A DNA stretch of 59,207 nt, the filler included, from an uncultured virus (IMG/VR IMGVR_UViG_2049941000_000702) (Duplodnaviria > Heunggongvirae > Uroviricota > Caudoviricetes). It is 19 parts of one record of this genome, joined end to end, with 100 filler letters (N's around TTAATTAATTAA, not from the genome) between each part and the next. Parts side by side here need not be neighbours in the genome. Positions count along the whole stretch, not along the records: positions 34,781 to 42,406 come from IMGVR_UViG_2049941000_000702; 18 more parts are not named here. One strand, 5' to 3'. The position numbers and the translations under genes were made by a program. This document shows, piece by piece, positions 3,643 to 42,506 of this stretch. The notes under the pieces are model-generated. The model was not told where the DNA came from and searched no databases. It worked only from the letters and a program-made list of their open reading frames with translations. How positions within the stretch are numbered: position 1 is the first letter of the stretch; each line of letters opens with the position of its first letter.

Positions 3643-4088
3643 AGGGCATCCAGGATATAAGGATGTACAAGGAAGTAGTATAACGCACCAAGAGCCGCCC
3701 ATATGAGCGAAAACAAAGGGCAGATCAGTCCTTGCACATTTCCAGGGCGTTTTGAGTAATCCCATAGTCTCAGAGAAAAACACTTCAGCAGTACAATTCC
3801 CGTCAGGTATTCGATCAGTGTCATTGATAGTGCCATCGCAATGAAAAGAATTAAAACGCCAATGTTTGTACTGCCAAATCCGGTTACCTGCCCCACGTAC
3901 GCCAGACTATACAGTATGCAAAGTCCAGATCCATACAGCGGCACATATGGGCCGAGACAAAAACCGGGATTGATCCATTTGTGCTCAGGATTTCCCGGAG
4001 AAAAGAACTTTCTGAAAACGAGTTCGAGAATCCATCCTAATATGGAACCAATGAAAAACAGGTATGCTAAACAAAGTACAAAGCTCAT
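3643..4088 (-). CDS. Multi-TM membrane protein (putative ABC-transporter permease-like / DUF1113-type), cargo gene
   Basis: FFIGSILGWILE...NPGFCLGPYVPLYGSG...IEYLTG...LWDYS...NVQGLICP motif pattern; hydrophobic. Confidence 0.8.
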
Positions 4089-4117
4089 TTCTTACCTCGT
4101 CGAACATTTTTGGTTCT

Positions 4118-33029: not shown

Positions 33030-36000
33030 AGAATCTGCCGAAAGCGGTGAATACCTTTCCCAGCGCGCCGGTGATATATCCCAGGTTCTTTATGAGGGTA
33101 CCGGATATGAGGATGACCGGACCTATGGCCGCCGCTATGCCCGCCCACTTGACGATGCTCTCCCTCTGGCCGGCATCCAGCCCCATGAAGGCCGAGATCA
33201 GCCCGTTCGCTTTATCCATAAGGGATTCCAGTGCGGGCGTCAGGTCCCTCGCGATCTGCCTGCCGGCGACGAGGGCACGGTTCTTAAGATTCGTAAGCTT
33301 GGCCGAGAGCGTATCATACTTTACCGCGGCGGATTCCGCAAGCTTCGTATTCTCGTTCCATGCTTCTATGGCAGTCTTCTGTGTTTCGGCGAACAGCTCC
33401 GTAGCGTTGGTGGCTCTTAAGAGAGTATCCCTCAGCCTGATCTCGCTTATGCCTATATCCTGCAGGGTAGCGATGGCGCTGACGCCTTCGTCACCCAATC
33501 GTGCCAGACCCACGATGAACTTCTGGAACACATCCGAAGGGTCTGCTTCCCACATGCGCACGAACTCTTCTTCCGTGAGCCCGCACACATTCGCAAAGTC
33601 CGTAAGCGCGTCCCCGCCGGTCGCAGCCGCCACTTCCATTTTGACCAGGGCTTTGGAAAAGNNNNNNNNNNCCGCCGGCGTTGGATCAGGACAGTAACAT
33701 TTCACCGCCAGGGTTATGTCCTTGTACACATCCACGCCCTCGGTCTGTGCTAAGGAGCCGCTCAGCCCCGGGATGTCGGTAAACGTCACCCGCTCCTCAG
33801 GCAGGATGATCTCCGGCAGCTCGTTCACCGTGATGCCGACTGTCCGGCTGTTGATTCCTTTCCAGGTTATATAGTCCTTCATTCTCCGTCTCCCATGAAA
33901 CGCGGTACTGTCCGGTTTCCCGAACCAGTACCGCCTTGAATACGCTCACACCGTGGCCAAGCAGGTTGTCCGCCATGGCCGCGGCCGCGTGGATATCGTC
34001 AACGATCGTCGTTCGCATTGTTTTCCATCNNNNNNNNNNTCGCCTACGCGCTGAACAATATACACGTCGTACCAGTCCCGGGCCAGCTCCCCGCCGAAAG
34101 TAGCGATGACGCCCTCGTCGCCCAGATAAGCGTCGATGGGATTGGTATGTTCGACAGAGAATTCATCCACGGTGGAGGTCAGGTCGGAATAGAACCTGAA
34201 ATCCGTCTCCGTTTCACAAGCTGCGCCGATACCCTTGACCACTTCCGCGCCGCGATCATTCTGTCCCTGCGTATAGGTCTTTATGAAGTTGTCCAAAAGG
34301 TCATAAAAGATATGTCGGGCATAAACGGTGATCTTGTTTAATTCCGGCACGACCCTGTATATACGAAAAGGCTGATCCCGCAGTTGTTTGCTCTCGACCA
34401 CATCGTGCACGATGGTCTCGATGCTCTCGGAATGATAAACGTTCGAGCAGGAATATCCCGGAACCCAGCCGCTCAGACCGCTCGGTGCAACGATGTGGTA
34501 CCAAATGGCGACGGTGCGCGTATAGTTTTCCGGGACGCTGTCTGTCGGGTATGAGCTATACCTTTTGACGTAATCCTTTGTCGCATCCGTTTTGTGTTTG
34601 AAGGTGGCGAAGTACTCGCTGTGATCGACAGCGATCTTCACGCCGGCGTCGACTGTGCCGATGATTTTACCGTTGCCGGANNNNNNNNNNNNNNNNNNNN
34701 NNNNNNNNNNNNNNNNNNNNNNNNTTAATTAATTAANNNNNNNNNNNNNNNNNNNNNNNNNNNNNNNNNNNNNNNNNNNNCGTGATCACGCCTTCGCCGA
34801 AACCGGCCATCGCCATCGCGCCGATCTCGTCACGGAATACATGGGACGGGGAGTGTATCTGCAGCGCTTCCTTTGCTGCCGCTACTGCCGCATTTGCCAG
34901 CGCTGTGATCGCAGCGGTGACTGTTGCCGTCCCGCTTGTAATGCCTGCCGCCAGTCCTTCTGCGATCGACGCGCCTATGGGCATGAACCGCCTGGCCGGT
35001 GAATTGATTCCGGCCGCCGCGCGCATGGCTTCGTCCGCTTCGTCCACCTTGTCTTTCGCCGGACCGGTTACGTCTGTCTGGCCCATGCCTGCGTTCACGC
35101 CTTCTCCGTATGCCGCACCGACTTCGCTTCCCGCATCCGCAGCCTGGTCCTTTATGGGGTCATACTTCGCGAACAGCTCGGTGAAACGCTGCATCTCCCC
35201 TTCCGTCAGCTTATCCAGGCCTCCCAGCTGCTTTAAGTACAGTCCCGCGAATTCCGCCTGCTCCCCGGGATTGCTGATCCTGCTCAGATCGATCATCCCG
35301 GAGAACAGCTCATCTTGCATGGCTTTGGCTATGGTGTAATCCTGTATGATCCTTTCCAGGGCTTCGTCTATCGTGGTATCCGTTGCGTCTATACCCTCCA
35401 GCATCAGCCCGTTGCGTATGGTGCTCACCAGATCGTAGTTCTCCGGATCTTCGCCCAGCTCCCGTACCGTATCCATGACGGAGAACAGCTCCTGGGCATC
35501 CCGGACAAAGGAAAGCATCTCATCATCCAGGTCCATTCCGTTCCGCATGGCGTCCACGATGGTCAGCAGAGCATTGGAATAGGACTCAACCTGCCCGCTG
35601 TTTATATACGCACTTGTCATCCGGGATCTGGATAATCCCAGAGGTCCGAAGATGTTCCTGCCCAGCCATCCCGTCGCGGCGTATACGGCGTTGTCGCCTC
35701 TAAGGCTGGCTGCCGTGCTCCTGTAGTGCCCGGTCATGGCCTGTATCATTTCGGAAAGCGTTTCACTGTCCGCTATGCCCCAGCCCAGGCCGTGTGTCTC
35801 CTGCCCGGCCTCTTTCAGCGCTTCCGCCGCTGCCCGGGCATCCTCCTGGGTCGCTTCCGCCCACTGAGGCTTGACCGTCACATGATATACGCCGTCCTGA
35901 TCCNNNNNNNNNNAGATCGACGACATCCGTTTTGCCCTTGCTGTAATCCGACAGCAGCGTGACCAGCTCGGACATCTGTCCGTAGGTCCTTTGGATGCCC

Positions 36001-37861
36001 TCGCTGTTCAGCACAGGCGTGATCGCCCTGCCCATGACCCGGGCGTACTCCCGTCCCGCCTCAAGCCGCTCGGCGTTATACCACTCGTTCAGCTGGGCAA
36101 GGGCCGCTTCCTTTTCCGTCTCGTCGGTCATCAGCTGCACGAGGGCGTAGCGGCTGTCGTACTGTTCGTCCAGTGCTTTGTTGACCGCCTGCATGCCTTC
36201 GGCCCCGGCAAGCAGGGCGTCTTTGTATACATCGATTCCGACGTCCTTGCCCTGAGCCTCAGCGCGGGCGACGGCAGCGTCGATACCGGCCTCCAGCTGG
36301 GAAAAGCCGTCCGTGTCCGCTTCGGAGATCCGGTATTTGATCTCGATCTCCTCACGCTTGAGCAGCAGGGCATTGAGTTCGGCTATATCCTCATCCGTAA
36401 GGAAATATTCCTGCCGTTTGGTGAGNNNNNNNNNNNNNNNNNNNNNNNNNNNNNNNNNNNNNNNNNNNNNNNNNNNNNNNNNNNNNNNNNNNNNNNNNNN
36501 NNNNNNNNNNNNNNNNNNNNNNNNNNNNNNNNNNNNNNNNNNNNNNNNNNNNNNNNNNNNNNNNNNNNNNNNNNNNNNNNNNNNNNNNNNNNNNNNNNNN
36601 NNNNNNNNNNNNNNNNNNNNNNNNNNNNNNNNNNNNNNNNNNNNNNNNNNNNNNNNNNNNNNNNNNNNNNNNNNNNNNTGAACGGGTCGACTGCGTCATC
36701 GTTTTAAACGAGGATACATAGCTTTCTATGGTATCCTTCGTCTCGATCGTATCGTCGGCCCATTCGGACTGCAGGGAGCTCATCCAGTTCCGGGTGCTCC
36801 TGATACCCTTGGTGAAGTCCTCAGCGGTCAGCCCAAAAGTCTCGAGCCCTTTTGAAGCGGAGTAGAAGGTATCCGCCGAGTTGTTTTTCCAGTCTTCAGC
36901 GGTCTCGTTCAGTTGCTTCAGGGCCTCGCGTGCCGCTTTTGCCCCGCTGGCGTAGTCATACAGGGTAACGGCTCCGTACACCGCTGCTGCAGTGAGCGCC
37001 AGCATGGCGATCTTAGAATGCCCTATGACCGAGAGCAGGCCTTTGACGCCGCCGCCCGCCATCGTCACCGCAGCGGAGAGCTTTCCGAAAGCCGTAAACA
37101 GTTTCCCGACTGCGCCGGCAATANNNNNNNNNNAGCCGACAGCGTGTCGTATTTGACCGCTGCCGACTCCGTCAGCTTTGTGTTTTCGTTCCAGGCCTCA
37201 ATGGCCGTTTTCTGTGTGCTCGCAAAAAGCTCTGTGGCGTTGGTCGCCCTCAAAAGTGTGTCTCTCAGCCTTATTTCGCTGATACCGATCTCCTGCAGTG
37301 TAGCGATGGCGGACGCGCCTTCATCGCCTAGCTGGGCCAGACCCACGATAAAGCGCTGGAACACCTCGGCGGGGTCGGCTTCCCACAGGCGCACAAACTC
37401 GTCCTCGGTCATGCCGCATACACTGGCGAAGTCGGTGAGCGCCTGTCCGCCTGTCGCAGCGGCTACTTCCATTTTGACGAGCGCCTTGGAGAAGGTTGAG
37501 CCGCCCATCTGGGCTTCCAGGCCGACGGAAGACAGCGCCGCGGCAAAGCCCACGATCTGCGCTTCGCTCAGACCGACCTGCTTACCGGCGGCTGCGAGGC
37601 GCTTGCTCATTTCGACGATCTCGCTCTCGGTCGTAGCGTAATTGACGCCCAGGGCGACAATAGCCGACGACAGGTTTGTGAACTGATCATGGCTCATGCC
37701 GGTGATATTGGCAAACTTGGCCAGCTGGGTTGCGGCCTCGTTCGCCTCAAGGTCGGTGGACGCCTTGCTCAGGTCGATCATGGCGCGGGTGAATTCCATG
37801 ATGTTTTCCGTATGGATACCCAGCTGACCGGCGGTAGCGACAACCTCCGCAATTTCATCCG
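33030..37861 (-). CDS. Tape measure protein fragments (several variants; Dit fragment 33672-33882 and Tal fragment 34040-34680 interleaved)
   Basis: TP901-type motifs LAKFANITGM, ATTESEIVEM, GLEAQMGGSTFSK; C-terminal GINSPAR / IHSPSHVFRDEIG. Confidence 0.85.
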
Positions 37862-37871
37862 NNNNNNNNNN

Positions 37872-38305
37872 GTCGTAGGATGGCTGGTTGTAACCCTTGT
37901 CCGATTCCTCCAGTATACTGAACCCATAGGCGTACATGGCCTGACGTATGGTTTCCGCCATATCCGTAGGGTCTATGTCGCTCCACAGGTTCATGTACAC
38001 ATAAGTCCTGAACGAAGTGACGTGGTCGTCCTGGTGCGATGCCTCAGTAGTAGTGGACGAGTAGACCACGTACTGCACTGGCGGGTTCTGGTTCGGAGAT
38101 GTAGCTCTCCATACTCCGGCGTACACCGGTATCCCGATATCCTTAAGCGCCTGCTGTACCTGCCTCATCCGCTCACTCCCTTCGCCACGGACGCTTTAAG
38201 CCCCAGGTATGTGCGCTTGAAGCTGTACTCGCCGAGAGTTGAGATATGCCACTTATCTCCCTGAAAGCGCACCCACATCCCGGGCTTGATATCCGCCCTG
38301 TAGCG
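37872..38305 (-). CDS. Head-tail adaptor C-terminus (38165-38305) and tail completion protein (37872-38168)
   Basis: RYRADIKPGMWVRF; MRQVQQALKDIGIPVYAG...YVVY. Confidence 0.7.
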
Positions 38306-38450
38306 NNNNNNNNNNGCCCAGGCCTGAGCCTGAACCGGTAATGGAATCCGAACCGGCACCAAAACCCGAACCCGAACACGACGACCGGGTGAAAGCGGCG
38401 GACCTCGAGAAGAGGCTGCTGCTTCTGAAATAATACGAGGAGAATCACAT

Positions 38451-38691
38451 ATGACCAGAATACTTGAACTGCGCGAAAAGCGCGCGAAACTCTGGAACGA
38501 CACCAAAGCGTTCCTTGACAGCCACCGCGGCGAGGACGGCATGGTCTCTGCCGAGGATAACGCCACCTATGAAAAGATGGAATCCGACGTGGTCGCGCTC
38601 GGTAAGGAGATCGAGCGCCTGGAACGCCAGGCAGCCATCGACCGGGAAATGGACCAGCCCACCGCGGCGCCCCTGGTCTCCCGTCCCGCGA
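38451..38691 (+). CDS. HK97-like major capsid protein N-terminus (contig inverted relative to neighbours)
   Basis: MTRILELREKRAKLWNDTKAFLD...YEKMESDV..LGKEIERLERQ; preceded by a probable Clp-protease tail ...LEKRLLLLK*. Confidence 0.85.
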
Positions 38692-38701
38692 NNNNNNNNN
38701 N

Positions 38702-39153
38702 CCCGGCTGCCGCGCTCATCCAGCGTGATCGTATGATGAGCGCCTTCCGCCTTTCTGGCTTCGATTGGTTCCACGACGACATATGTCCCCAACGGCAGCA
38801 CCCTCGCCAGGAGGGCGGGCACCTTGATTTCGGTACCCTTACGCTTACGAGCTTTTATGTCGGATATTCGTCGACTGGCAGGTTTNNNNNNNNNNGGTAT
38901 CCTAGGCATGGCTGTACTGACCTCCCGCGGTATTGCGCCCCATCTCAGGAGCCTTTCCCGCTCTTTACCGAGCTTCATACGGCGGAATAAACGCATTCGG
39001 TCGCATGTCGGAGTATCAGAGTCTTTGTAACCCCTCACGCGGGGTCAGACAGGAATTTCACCTATCAAATCAGCGCAAAGTTCAATTTCCAATTTAGAAA
39101 TTGGCCTGTTTTATTGCGCGTTTCTGCGCAGATTGTCAGGCAACAGAGCGCAC
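38702..39153 (-). mobile_element. Group II intron, 5' part (domain I), inserted in the major tail protein gene
   Basis: GUGCG start at the point where tail-protein homology breaks; GGUGAAAUUCC motif; EBS1 GUCGUC (38775-38780) pairs with exon GAUGAC; EBS2 CGAAU (38866-38870) in a hairpin loop pairs with exon AUUCG. Confidence 0.75.
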
Positions 39154-39345
39154 GTCATCAGCGAATTGGACCTCTGGGTCCGCGTTGTCAGGGGTGACAC
39201 TGGCCTCTATGGCGCCGGCCACCAGCTGCAGGTCGCCGTAGGTATGCGCTTCGTCCGTATCTGTGAGCAGCGGCGCCAGCACCACGTTCTTGAGGCCGAT
39301 GGTGGACGCCACTTTAGGGGAAGCGGCAGGTGTGTTGTTAGGCAT
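39154..39345 (-). CDS. Major tail protein (phi13-like), exon 1
   Basis: STIGLKNVVLAPL...GAIEASVTP...QFADD| then abrupt loss of frame. Confidence 0.8.
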
Positions 39346-39380
39346 GATAGTATCTCCTTGTTATTCTATTGTGTGTATGG

Positions 39381-39794
39381 TTACGGTTTCAGCGCGTCAC
39401 GCAACACGCGCTTCATTTCCTCGCAGGCGTCCGGATAGCGGACGTCGAATGCGGGCCTGACAAAGGGATGGGGCGGCGCAGGCGCTGGTCCGGCATGGCC
39501 GTATTCGAGCGGATTTGAGTAAAATGCGCCTTTCTCTGAGTGCTTGACACCAATGGTTATCCGCTTGCCCTGTCCGCCGCGCTTCTGTCTTACCCCGTGG
39601 GTGTGTATGGAAGAGTAAAGGTCTCCGGATATTATCTTCGGATCGCTGGACGCGTTCGCTTTCATCTGCTCCTCTATGGGCACCGCGCCAGCCTTGAGTG
39701 CCTCGTCTATTACGTGGCCCTCATTGCCGACAGCGCCGGCCATTTTGAGCAGGCCGTTTGCGAGCTCGTCAAAGCCCTCAGTCTGTATAGGCAT
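39381..39794 (-). CDS. HK97 gp10-like tail component
   Basis: EGFDEL...ALKAGA..SGDLYSSI...LEYGH...PHPFVRPAFD. Confidence 0.85.
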   Translation of the reverse strand: MPIQTEGFDELANGLLKMAGAVGNEGHVIDEALKAGAVPIEEQMKANASSDPKIISGDLYSSIHTHGVRQKRGGQGKRITIGVKHSEKGAFYSNPLEYGHAGPAPAPPHPFVRPAFDVRYPDACEEMKRVLRDALKP

Positions 39795-39828
39795 AGCTTT
39801 TCTCCTCGTATAACACCCNNNNNNNNNN

Positions 39829-42380
39829 GACGTAGCGACGACCGTGCTCATCTGCTCAATCTGCTCATAGAATTCTGTGAACTGTTCTTCCGTGGCGCTG
39901 ACCGTTCGGCGTACATTGGCGAAAGCCTGGTCATAGCTGATCAGTGCTTTTACCGATGCTGTGGCAAGACCGAGAATAGGGGTCGTCAGATACCTGAGCA
40001 TCATACGGCCGGAACGCTGCATGGTACGGCCAAGGGAAACACATTTCTGGGAAAACGCCGTCAGCGCAGCGCACGCCTGTGNNNNNNNNNNGCCGTTTGG
40101 TGAGCAGCTCTTCCACACGGGCATCCAGGGCATCGAGCTCGGCCATGTCCTTTTTGATCTGGGAGTTCATGCCCGTAAAGCCCGCTTCAGACGCGGTATC
40201 TGCCATTTCGCTGAGCGCACTGCGGGTTGAATCTGTCAGTGTCTTGAACGAAGATACATAGCTCTCTATGGTATCCTTCGTTTCGATGGTTTCGTCCGCC
40301 CACTCCGTCGTCAGGGAGGACATCCATTTCCCCGTGGAGGTGATGCCCTTGGTGAAGTCATCGGCAGCGAGCCCAAAAGCCTCCAGACCCTTGGACTCCG
40401 AATAGAATGTCTTTGCCTGGTTATTCTTCCAGTCCTCAGCGGTATCGTTCAGGCTCTGCAGCGCTTCCCGCGCGGCCTTGGCTCCGCTGGCATAATCATA
40501 GAGCTGTACGGCTCCGTACACCGCGGCCGCCGTGAGCGCGAGCATGGCGATCCTTGAGTGCCCGATGACCGATAGCAGGCCTCTAAAACCGCCGCCTGCC
40601 ATCGTCACGGCGGCGGACAGTTTACCGAAAAGCGTGAACAGCTTTCCAAGCGCGCCGGTGATGTAACCAAGGTTCCTTATAAGGGTTCCCGTAATCAGGA
40701 TGACAGGTCCGATCGCTGCTGCGATCCCAGCCCATTTGATGATATTTTCCCGCTGGCTCTTATCCAGCCCCATAAAAGACGCGATCAGGCTGTTGGCCTT
40801 TTCCATCAGGCTTTCTATGGTTGGCGTGAGATCGCGGGCGATCTGCCTGCCCGCCACCAGCGCTTTATTCTTTAGGTTGGTCAGCNNNNNNNNNNCGTTT
40901 GGTGAGCAGCTCTTCCACCCTGGCATCCAAAGCATCGAGCTCGGCCATGTCGGCCTTGATCTGGGTATTCAGTTTTCCGAATCCCGCCTCGGACGCGGTG
41001 TCAGCCATTTCGGACAGCGCCGAACGGGTCGACTGCGTCATTGTCTTAAACGAAGATACGTAGCTTTCGATCGTATCCTTCGTCTCGATCGTATCGTCAG
41101 CCCATTCGGACCGCAGGGAGCTCATCCAGCTCCGTGTGCTCTTTATACCTTTAGTGAAGTCCTCGGCGGTCAGTCCAAAACTCTCGAGTCCTTTTGACGC
41201 GGAATAGAAGGTATCCGCGGCGTTGCTTTTCCAGTCTTCAGCGGTCTCATTCAGTTGCTTCAGGGCCTCACGTGCCGCTTTTGCTCCGCTGGCGTAGTCA
41301 TACAGAGTAACGGCTCCGTACACCGCTGCTGCAGTGAGCGCCAGCATGGCGATCTTCGAGTGCCCAATGACTGAAAGCAGGCCTTTTACGCCGCCTCCCG
41401 CCATGGTCACGGCAGCGGACAGTTTGCCAAAAGCTGTGAACAGTTTCCCGACCGCGCCGGCGATGTAGCCTATGTTCTTTATAAGGGTTCCTGTAATCAG
41501 GATAACTGGCCCGATAGCGGCTGCTATCGCCGCCCATTTGATGATGTGCAATACCGCTCGTNNNNNNNNNNCAGGGTGGCGATGGCGCTGACTCCCTCGT
41601 CGCCCAGCTTAGACAGGCCCACTATGAACTTCTGGAACACGTCGGAGGGGTCGGCCGCCCACATGCGTCTGAACTCTTCTTCCGACAGACCGCATACCTT
41701 GGCAAAGTCTGTAAGCGCCTGTCCGCCCGTAGCGGCGGCGACTTCCATCTTGACTAAAGCCTTGGAGAAAGTGGAACCGCCCATCTGGGCTTCCAGGCCT
41801 ACCGAGGACAGCGCCGCGGCGAAGCCCACTATCTGCGCCTCTGATAGACCTACCTGTTTGCCCGCTGCTGCCAGGCGTTTGCTCATCTCTACTATCTCGC
41901 TCTCGGTAGTGGCGTAGTTGACGCCCAGCGCTACCACAGCGGAGGACAGATTGGTGAACTCATCATGGCTCATGCCGGTTATATTGGCGAACTTGGCCAG
42001 TTCCGTAGCGGCCTGGTTGGCCTCCAGGTCGGTGGACGCCATGCCCAGGTCTATCATCGCCCGGGTGAAGTCCATTATGTTCTCTGAATGNNNNNNNNNN
42101 GGGAGACCATGGACTGCTTAAGGGAATTGATGGAGTTTATGTTCTGCCGGTACGCGGCATCCACGGAAGCATAGACAGCAGTGGTGCGTTCCACCTCGGC
42201 GTGCTGACGGGCGATCTCCGCGTTGAGCGGAGCCATCTGTGCTTTGGCTTCAGCCAGCCGCGCGGAGTACTTGGCCAGGTACCCTTCCGTCGCCAGCATC
42301 TTGTTATTGGCTTCGGATAGATGAGCGGAGTACTGCCTGACCGCTGCGTTTTGGAGCATTACGGTCTGTTCCAGCATCTG
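39829..42380 (-). CDS. Tape measure protein fragments (additional variants)
   Basis: Repeated homologous blocks (KWAGIAAAIGPVIL, YDYASGAKAAREAL) present three times in the window. Confidence 0.85.
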
Positions 42381-42506
42381 CTTCTGCGATCGACGCGCCT
42401 ATGGGCNNNNNNNNNNNNNNNNNNNNNNNNNNNNNNNNNNNNNNNNNNNNTTAATTAATTAANNNNNNNNNNNNNNNNNNNNNNNNNNNNNNNNNNNNNN
42501 NNNNNN

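Follow-up and report, generated by a model that had tools for sequence, protein, structure and literature searches.

The major tail protein gene of the uncultured virus IMGVR_UViG_2049941000_000702 is interrupted directly after codon 64, in phase 0, by what is very probably the 5' end of a mobile bacterial group II intron encoding a reverse transcriptase (RT)/maturase, an intron that we take, with high confidence, to be genuine and probably full length. With the same confidence, which covers both statements jointly, we regard the host phage as a temperate siphovirus of the group annotated as Christensenellales phages (Ca. Heliusvirales).

The window, by which we mean the whole 59,207-base stretch of DNA analyzed here, contains 126 runs of N and is no contiguous stretch of genome. 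Eighteen of these runs are 100-base spacers of the form N44-TTAATTAATTAA-N44 (for example, 529-628, 34681-34780, and 42407-42506). The window was built by stringing contigs together with a six-frame stop linker, which makes it a pseudo-molecule, and gene order across the spacers is therefore meaningless. The N runs other than the spacers are mostly 10-N scaffold gaps. When compared to related phage genomes, the pieces near the tail gene are out of order and in mixed orientations. The start of a major capsid gene lies on the other strand just beyond the gap at which the intron is lost, which indicates that the scaffold is mis-ordered there. A tape-measure segment is present in the one scaffold in three divergent versions (36391-37068, 39931-40935, and 40865-41551, all on the minus strand), and the segment adjoining it is present in two (37065-38168 and 41524-42075, both minus). 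Several related phages or strain variants seem to have been co-assembled and mis-scaffolded around the tail gene. Because of this disorder and the duplicate tape-measure versions, linkage across the N gaps needs outside support.

The interrupted gene and its intron lie on the minus strand throughout, and small corrections were made to the coordinates given earlier (Table 1). A gap-free piece of 923 nt (38896..39818) carries the 3' part of an HK97 gp10-like gene, a ribosome-binding site, and then the open reading frame that begins at 39345. The gp10-like gene scored 43.7 bits with TIGR01725 (cut-off 30.8), and its position just upstream of a major tail gene is the expected siphovirus context. 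The exon 1 product matched the phrog_88 "major tail protein" profile with an E value of 2.9e-8. In the annotated major tail protein of the Christensenellales phage PV036454 (203 aa), residues 1-64 are 75% identical to it, and the identity to the major tail protein of PV036419 is 69%. Against the phi13-type profile TIGR01603 the exon 1 product reached 20.1 bits, under the cut-off of 35.2, since 64 of about 200 residues are present. Profile match, orthology, and tail-module synteny together identify the gene as a phage major tail (tube) protein gene. The homology stops exactly at the Asp-Asp pair (codon 64, base 39154), and intron-less tail proteins run on past this pair with N/I-EFD.. for some 139 further residues.

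The initial annotation had described tail homology ending at QFADD, followed by GUGCG and about 450 nt of structured intron sequence, with the remainder of the intron and any RT reading frame missing at a gap; it had also proposed the Rfam group-II-D1D4 models as a check. All of this was borne out. The junction falls at 39154/39153 on the minus strand, where the GTGCG that directly follows exon 1 fits the 5' boundary consensus GUGYG. The visible intron amounts to about 442 nt in two pieces, both of which fold more stably than dinucleotide shuffles (z -2.88 for the 5' piece and z -2.30 for the 3' piece). Rfam model RF02004 (group-II-D1D4-5) matched 39061..38914 on the minus strand with 39.3 bits, above its gathering score of 34.5 (E 5e-5), and the window yielded no second Rfam match when the threshold was relaxed to E<=1. 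At the same threshold the window gave no match to RF00029 for domain V/VI and no tblastn match to the intron-encoded protein (IEP) of the related locus L003, and tail exon 2 is absent anywhere in the 59 kb. The two domain I pieces are collinear in relatives, with 19 nt between the aligned ends in L003 and L005, and hence the 10-N gap between them hides about 8-10 real bases. Our joining of the two intron pieces is provisional in that it rests on this collinearity with relatives; L003 and L047 are collinear with the window from 39692 to 38702.

Table 1 Features of the interrupted tail gene and its surroundings, in window positions
Feature	Position	Strand	Basis or remark
HK97 gp10-like tail-completion gene, 3' part	39381..39818	-	Upstream neighbour; TIGR01725, PF04883, phrog_5
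Exon 1 of major tail protein gene, 64 codons (MPNN..QFADD)	39345..39154	-	phrog_88
IBS2 (AUUCG)	39166..39162	-	In exon 1
IBS1 (GAUGAC)	39159..39154	-	Last six exon bases
5' splice site (GUGCG), first five intron bases	39153..39149	-	Follows codon 64 immediately
Group II intron domain I, 5' part, 258 nt	39153..38896	-	RF02004, fold, family alignment
Gap inside domain I, 10 N	38886..38895	.	Flanks collinear in L003/L005
Group II intron domain I, 3' part, 184 nt	38885..38702	-	Holds EBS1 and EBS2 loops
EBS2 (CGAAU)	38870..38866	-	Loop of GUCG/CGAC hairpin
EBS1 (GUCGUC)	38780..38775	-	Hairpin loop
N gap where intron sequence is lost	38692..38701	.	Unrelated piece beyond
Unrelated piece past the intron gap	38316..38691		Major capsid gene start, on the strand opposite to the intron
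Major capsid protein N-terminus	38451..38691	+	phrog_10, E 2.8e-12

Group II introns of the Ll.LtrB family recognize their target by means of EBS1 and EBS2. Pairing of a GUCGUC EBS1 with exon GAUGAC, and of a CGAAU EBS2 in a GUCG/CGAC hairpin loop with exon AUUCG, had been proposed for the window at the outset, and both were recovered. EBS1/IBS1 forms 6/6 pairs, one of which is G.U, EBS2/IBS2 forms 5/5 pairs, and both EBS hairpins are part of the minimum-free-energy fold of the 3' piece. The EBS1 and EBS2 loops are both complementary to sequence within the last 13 exon bases. We extended the analysis to a family alignment (A3) of 21 distinct sequences reaching from exon position -20 to intron position +450. 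RNAalifold predicted 114 pairs in this alignment, 32 of them with compensatory changes, and paired the EBS1 loop, unprompted, with the final six bases of the exon. The IBS1/EBS1 pairing holds in 126/126 cells of the family alignment. Within IBS1, variation is confined to the third base of each Asp codon, and each of these lies opposite a G with which it can form G-C or G.U. With both helices in register, 89.2% of 231 cells were paired, compared to at most 55% when the partner was slid by 1-3 columns.

For EBS2/IBS2, 76.2% of the family cells were paired, and five of the 21 sequences form 5/5 pairs with different spellings (those named being the window, L179, L180, and L196). Covariation support for EBS2 had been expected from these four, and a shuffle control failed to bear it out: the paired percentage was reached by 286 of 500 shuffles and the covariation score by 193 of 500, so that EBS2/IBS2 covaries no better than shuffled sequence. 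On the alignment and the fold, EBS1 can be considered established; EBS2 appears correct in its position and in the window, and is unproven by covariation. Recent invasion of alleles with a mismatched IBS2 would explain the poor covariation of EBS2. EBS1 is preceded on its 5' side by a U that does not vary, and the first base of the 3' exon is G, A, or C depending on the allele.

Related loci were sought with two kinds of scan. A two-part domain I pattern identified 4 loci in viral contigs and 90 stretches in genome contigs across Firmicutes, and an internal 20-mer identified 5 loci in viral contigs and 17 in metagenome contigs. Most of the 90 genome stretches hold the class-level motif only, and two of them, in the MAGs L047 (Ca. 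Limiplasma) and L052 (a Clostridia MAG), hold the same intron as the window. These two and the 22 loci from the 20-mer scans make up the 24 intron loci considered below. The phages that host the intron come from human, sheep, and bovine gut samples. A blastn search of both intron pieces against 50,697 GenBank phage records gave no match.

Examination of the 24 loci revealed the same 5' junction, ..Q[Y/F/H][A/F]DD or ..GAYGAY followed by GTGCG in the orthologous tail gene, in 23. This count includes L192 and L195, which lack a tblastn match to the tail protein and have the same 30-nt exon context. Fourteen introns are complete, with lengths of 2725-2746 nt, a GTGCG start, and an end in ..AT. 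In all 14, exon 2 takes up the reading frame again at residue 65, in phase 0, and when exon 1 of the relatives (residues 1-64) is put together with exon 2, the two match intron-less proteins of 199-203 aa. RF00029 (Intron_gpII, domain V/VI) was found in 5/5 scanned relatives with 54.7-55.4 bits, ending on the last intron base, and RF02004 was found in the same five with 40.3-46.2 bits.

The initial annotation had called for extension to an RT/maturase, domain V, and exon 2, and had named as grounds for abandoning the intron the lack of domain V/VI, the lack of a resumed tail frame downstream, and a chimeric junction. The relatives speak to each of these points. The 14 complete copies supply the missing parts and an in-phase exon 2, domain V/VI is present in all five of the relatives scanned for it, and the same junction recurs at 23 of the 24 loci on independent contigs from other samples.

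Several of these loci have peculiarities of their own. Domain V in this intron family (L003, 6481-6516) reads CGC at the place of the AGC catalytic triad of the Rfam consensus. At L181 and L183, the tblastn match to tail exon 2 ends at residue 135 of about 203, possibly by reason of a frameshift, a divergent C-terminus, or recombination. One uncultured Clostridia MAG holds the class-level domain I pattern in at least 11 places on 7 contigs, some about 1-3 kb apart (L009, L022, L029, L044, L059, L062, L075, and L080), which suggests that a related group II intron has multiplied there in a burst. The one related locus that counts against our interpretation is L187 (300-420 and 3101-3307), which has another 5' exon and whose intron starts with GCGCG instead of GUGCG. 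Its upstream reading frame is not that of a tail protein (..SLYAED; ..PEWFGKVDLAPNVYSLYAED) and has no informative Pfam match, and tail exon 2 is still found downstream. Two explanations offer themselves for this locus: ectopic insertion of the intron at a site of similar sequence (..GAGGAT), or chimeric assembly of the metagenome through the common intron.

Each of the 14 complete introns contains an open frame of 633-637 codons for the IEP. The L003 IEP scored 317 bits with the NCBIfam group II RT/maturase equivalog TIGR04416 (cut-off 300) and 112 bits with Pfam RVT_1. Its best match among solved structures was LtrA (1e-52), through the RT and X domains, and this alignment ends at residue 410 of 624. 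The last 225 IEP residues matched no Pfam family, HNH and GIIM included, even at E<=10. The LtrA-like (IIA/ML) subclass with an En domain is defined by a C-terminal DNA-binding and HNH region, and no such region was found in the IEP.

Comparison with intron-less alleles, likewise proposed in the initial annotation, was made with tail-gene relatives in IMG/VR that were found from the exon-2 alignment. There were 266, and we examined the best 80. The gene is uninterrupted in 80/80 of these best relatives, and GAYGAY is present at the homing site in 80/80. Only 5 IMG/VR contigs carry the intron by the 20-mer scan, and together with the empty sites in the best 80 relatives this makes the intron sporadic. 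For the ten loci having both exons complete, we compared intron and exon identity, and the intron was more alike than the exons in 44 of the 45 pairs. In five distinct phage lineages (L177, L178, L180, L184, and L190), the introns are 99.3-99.6% identical over 2.74 kb and the exons are 70.2-87.2% identical, with exon divergence beginning right at both junctions. The five introns have one common EBS2 sequence, and the IBS2 sequences opposite it differ. Near-identical introns in diverged tail genes point to probable recent retrohoming that would be RNA-mediated and without co-conversion of the flanks.

These same observations bear on the possibility that the intron is full length and no longer mobile, being inherited vertically with the phage lineage and kept only since it splices. 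The single site in 23 of the 24 loci is in keeping with such an intron, as is the undetectable endonuclease domain of the IEP. Against this stand the near identity of the introns in tail genes only 70-87% identical, with exons diverging from both junctions; the EBS2 held in common by the group despite its differing IBS2 sequences; and the empty sites in all of the best 80 of 266 alleles. The contrast between intron and exon identity, the common EBS2, and the empty sites fit recent horizontal invasion better than co-descent, and we consider an immobile intron unlikely.

A further reading is one that we advance tentatively, as possible: that the intron is actively retrohoming and is specialized on the invariant Asp-Asp pair of the tail tube gene in a widespread lineage of gut phages, reading all four GAY-GAY spellings. 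Were this so, the phage would have no escape by silent mutation, because a G of EBS1 lies opposite both synonymous third positions. The near identity of introns in diverged tail genes suggests spread in co-infection or between a prophage and a superinfecting phage.

The window itself holds only the first 450 nt or so of the intron, and domain V, the IEP, and exon 2 are absent from its 59 kb. This would also be expected of a truncated or decayed remnant in a defective prophage, the tail gene then being a pseudogene and splicing having ceased. The intron sequence stops, however, at N gaps of a scaffold with 126 of them and not at a recognizable deletion junction. The visible part is 97.6% (5' piece) and 92.4% (3' piece) identical to the intact 2741-nt copy of L188, which is the closest relative and has an exon 1 88.5% identical to that of the window; the 3' piece is 92-93% identical to those of L188, L196, and L177. 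GUGCG is kept, EBS1 and EBS2 are perfectly matched to their own exon, and the complete relatives are intact in 14/14 cases. We regard a remnant as quite improbable, and the window copy as probably full length with the rest lost at assembly gaps. That the exon 1/intron junction is an assembly chimera of the tail gene and an unrelated intron copy is scarcely credible: the scaffold is jumbled, with its capsid start on the other strand and three tape-measure versions, and L187 may be a similar case, but the junction lies within the gap-free 923-nt piece, recurs on 23 contigs from other assemblies, is bridged on L188 by a sheep-gut DNA contig, and joins to this very exon an intron whose EBS1 and EBS2 are complementary to it.

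For the genuine, mobile intron that we favor, the following course of events can be proposed. Transcription of the tail gene or late operon would run through the ~2.74-kb intron, the IEP would be translated from domain IV, and the maturase would aid folding of the ribozyme. The intron would then leave as a lariat, and ligation of the exons would give the mRNA for the ~200-aa tail tube protein. As the tail mRNA would be made by splicing, assembly of the virion tail would be splicing-dependent. The excised intron-IEP particle could reverse-splice into intron-less GAYGAY alleles, recognized via EBS1/IBS1, where the G of EBS1 opposite both Asp third positions would allow GAC and GAU both to be read. 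Copying of the reverse-spliced intron to cDNA would complete retrohoming. Since the IEP is without a detectable HNH/En domain, priming might, speculatively, take place from replication-fork DNA.

Public sequencing runs were searched with positions 964-4310 of L188, which gave 20 rows, from 13 studies, that contain part of the stretch. Contigs of the RNA-library runs X15, X16, and X17 and of the sheep-gut DNA run X1 were compared to the L188 stretch at a likeness of at least 90%. The RNA-library contigs cover parts of the intron, and one from X16 (record 24, 3779-3966) runs unspliced from the intron into exon 2, which could reflect precursor RNA or carried-over DNA. Contigs of X1 extend across the whole L188 stretch, with record 1 (964-1281) bridging the exon 1/intron junction. 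No exon 1-exon 2 joint occurs in the contigs of X1, X15, X16, or X17, a result compatible with splicing and with its absence alike, as contigs drop rare forms. A further X16 contig (record 23, L188 positions 3772-3825) has a variant intron 3' end, ..ACCTATCACTAT, and then letters other than those of tail exon 2; it may derive from a related intron at another insertion site. The single listed joint, from 3825 to 4114 with 38 other letters between (side 23), looks like the intron 3' end of a relative with different downstream letters.

The element most readily compared to the tail-gene intron is Ll.LtrB, the group II intron that encodes LtrA and is located in a relaxase gene carried by a conjugative element of Lactococcus. 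Both are RT/maturase-encoding bacterial group II introns within an essential gene of a mobile element. Ll.LtrB has the same GUGCG 5' end, and LtrA is the best solved-structure match of the tail-gene IEP. They differ in that the intron described here resides in a structural gene of a phage virion, that the C-terminal ~210 residues of its IEP are unaligned with LtrA and have no detectable HNH/En domain, and that its domain V reads CGC in place of the AGC of the Rfam consensus.

Group II introns in phages have been reported far less often than group I introns. The latter are well documented in phage capsid, tail, tape-measure, and terminase genes, examples being the capsid gene of LittleE, the tail gene of BAKA, the capsid gene of Tuc2009, and tape-measure, terminase, and tube genes of B. 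cereus-group prophages (PMC3706429; PMC2504315). Their likeness to the tail-gene intron lies in the interruption of a highly expressed virion gene, splicing-dependent assembly, and a sporadic distribution (PMC3706429; PMC2504315). Those elements are, however, group I ribozymes spread by homing endonucleases with co-conversion of the flanks, whereas the tail-gene intron is a group II retroelement with an RT. Flank co-conversion, a group I trait, is invisible at the tail-gene intron, the exons differing up to both junctions.

Another parallel is found in the prophages of Clostridium clostridioforme LM41, for which group II RT/maturase insertions are described, including one in the helicase gene of LM41phi6 (PMC11318856). 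There too, the host is a gut member of the Clostridia, and a prophage gene is interrupted by a group II intron. The LM41phi6 insertion differs in affecting a replication gene and in being read by the authors as probably inactivating, and it is there ascribed to a host-wide intron family of 29 copies (PMC11318856). Unlike these, the tail-gene intron is a site-specific resident of one phage lineage found in many samples. Among the open-access papers and preprints searched, none was found that describes a phage major tail gene with a group II intron, and the word "intron" occurs 0 times in the main text of the Ca. Heliusvirales paper (PMC11283538). As a mobile bacterial group II intron the element is ordinary for its class, and the kind of gene that hosts it is unusual but not unprecedented.

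What sets the case apart is that a group II retroelement, complete and intact, recurs at a single site of the tail protein needed in greatest abundance, and that its population signature, as read from the alleles compared here, points to probable ongoing homing. For annotation, such tail genes will appear as two fragments around an "RT" gene. If the intron is actively retrohoming as tentatively proposed, it would be a selfish element carried along with the expression of late structural genes and possibly gating it. Should splicing be confirmed, production of tails would hinge on a ribozyme and its maturase, and the empty and occupied alleles would constitute a natural system for intron homing between viruses.
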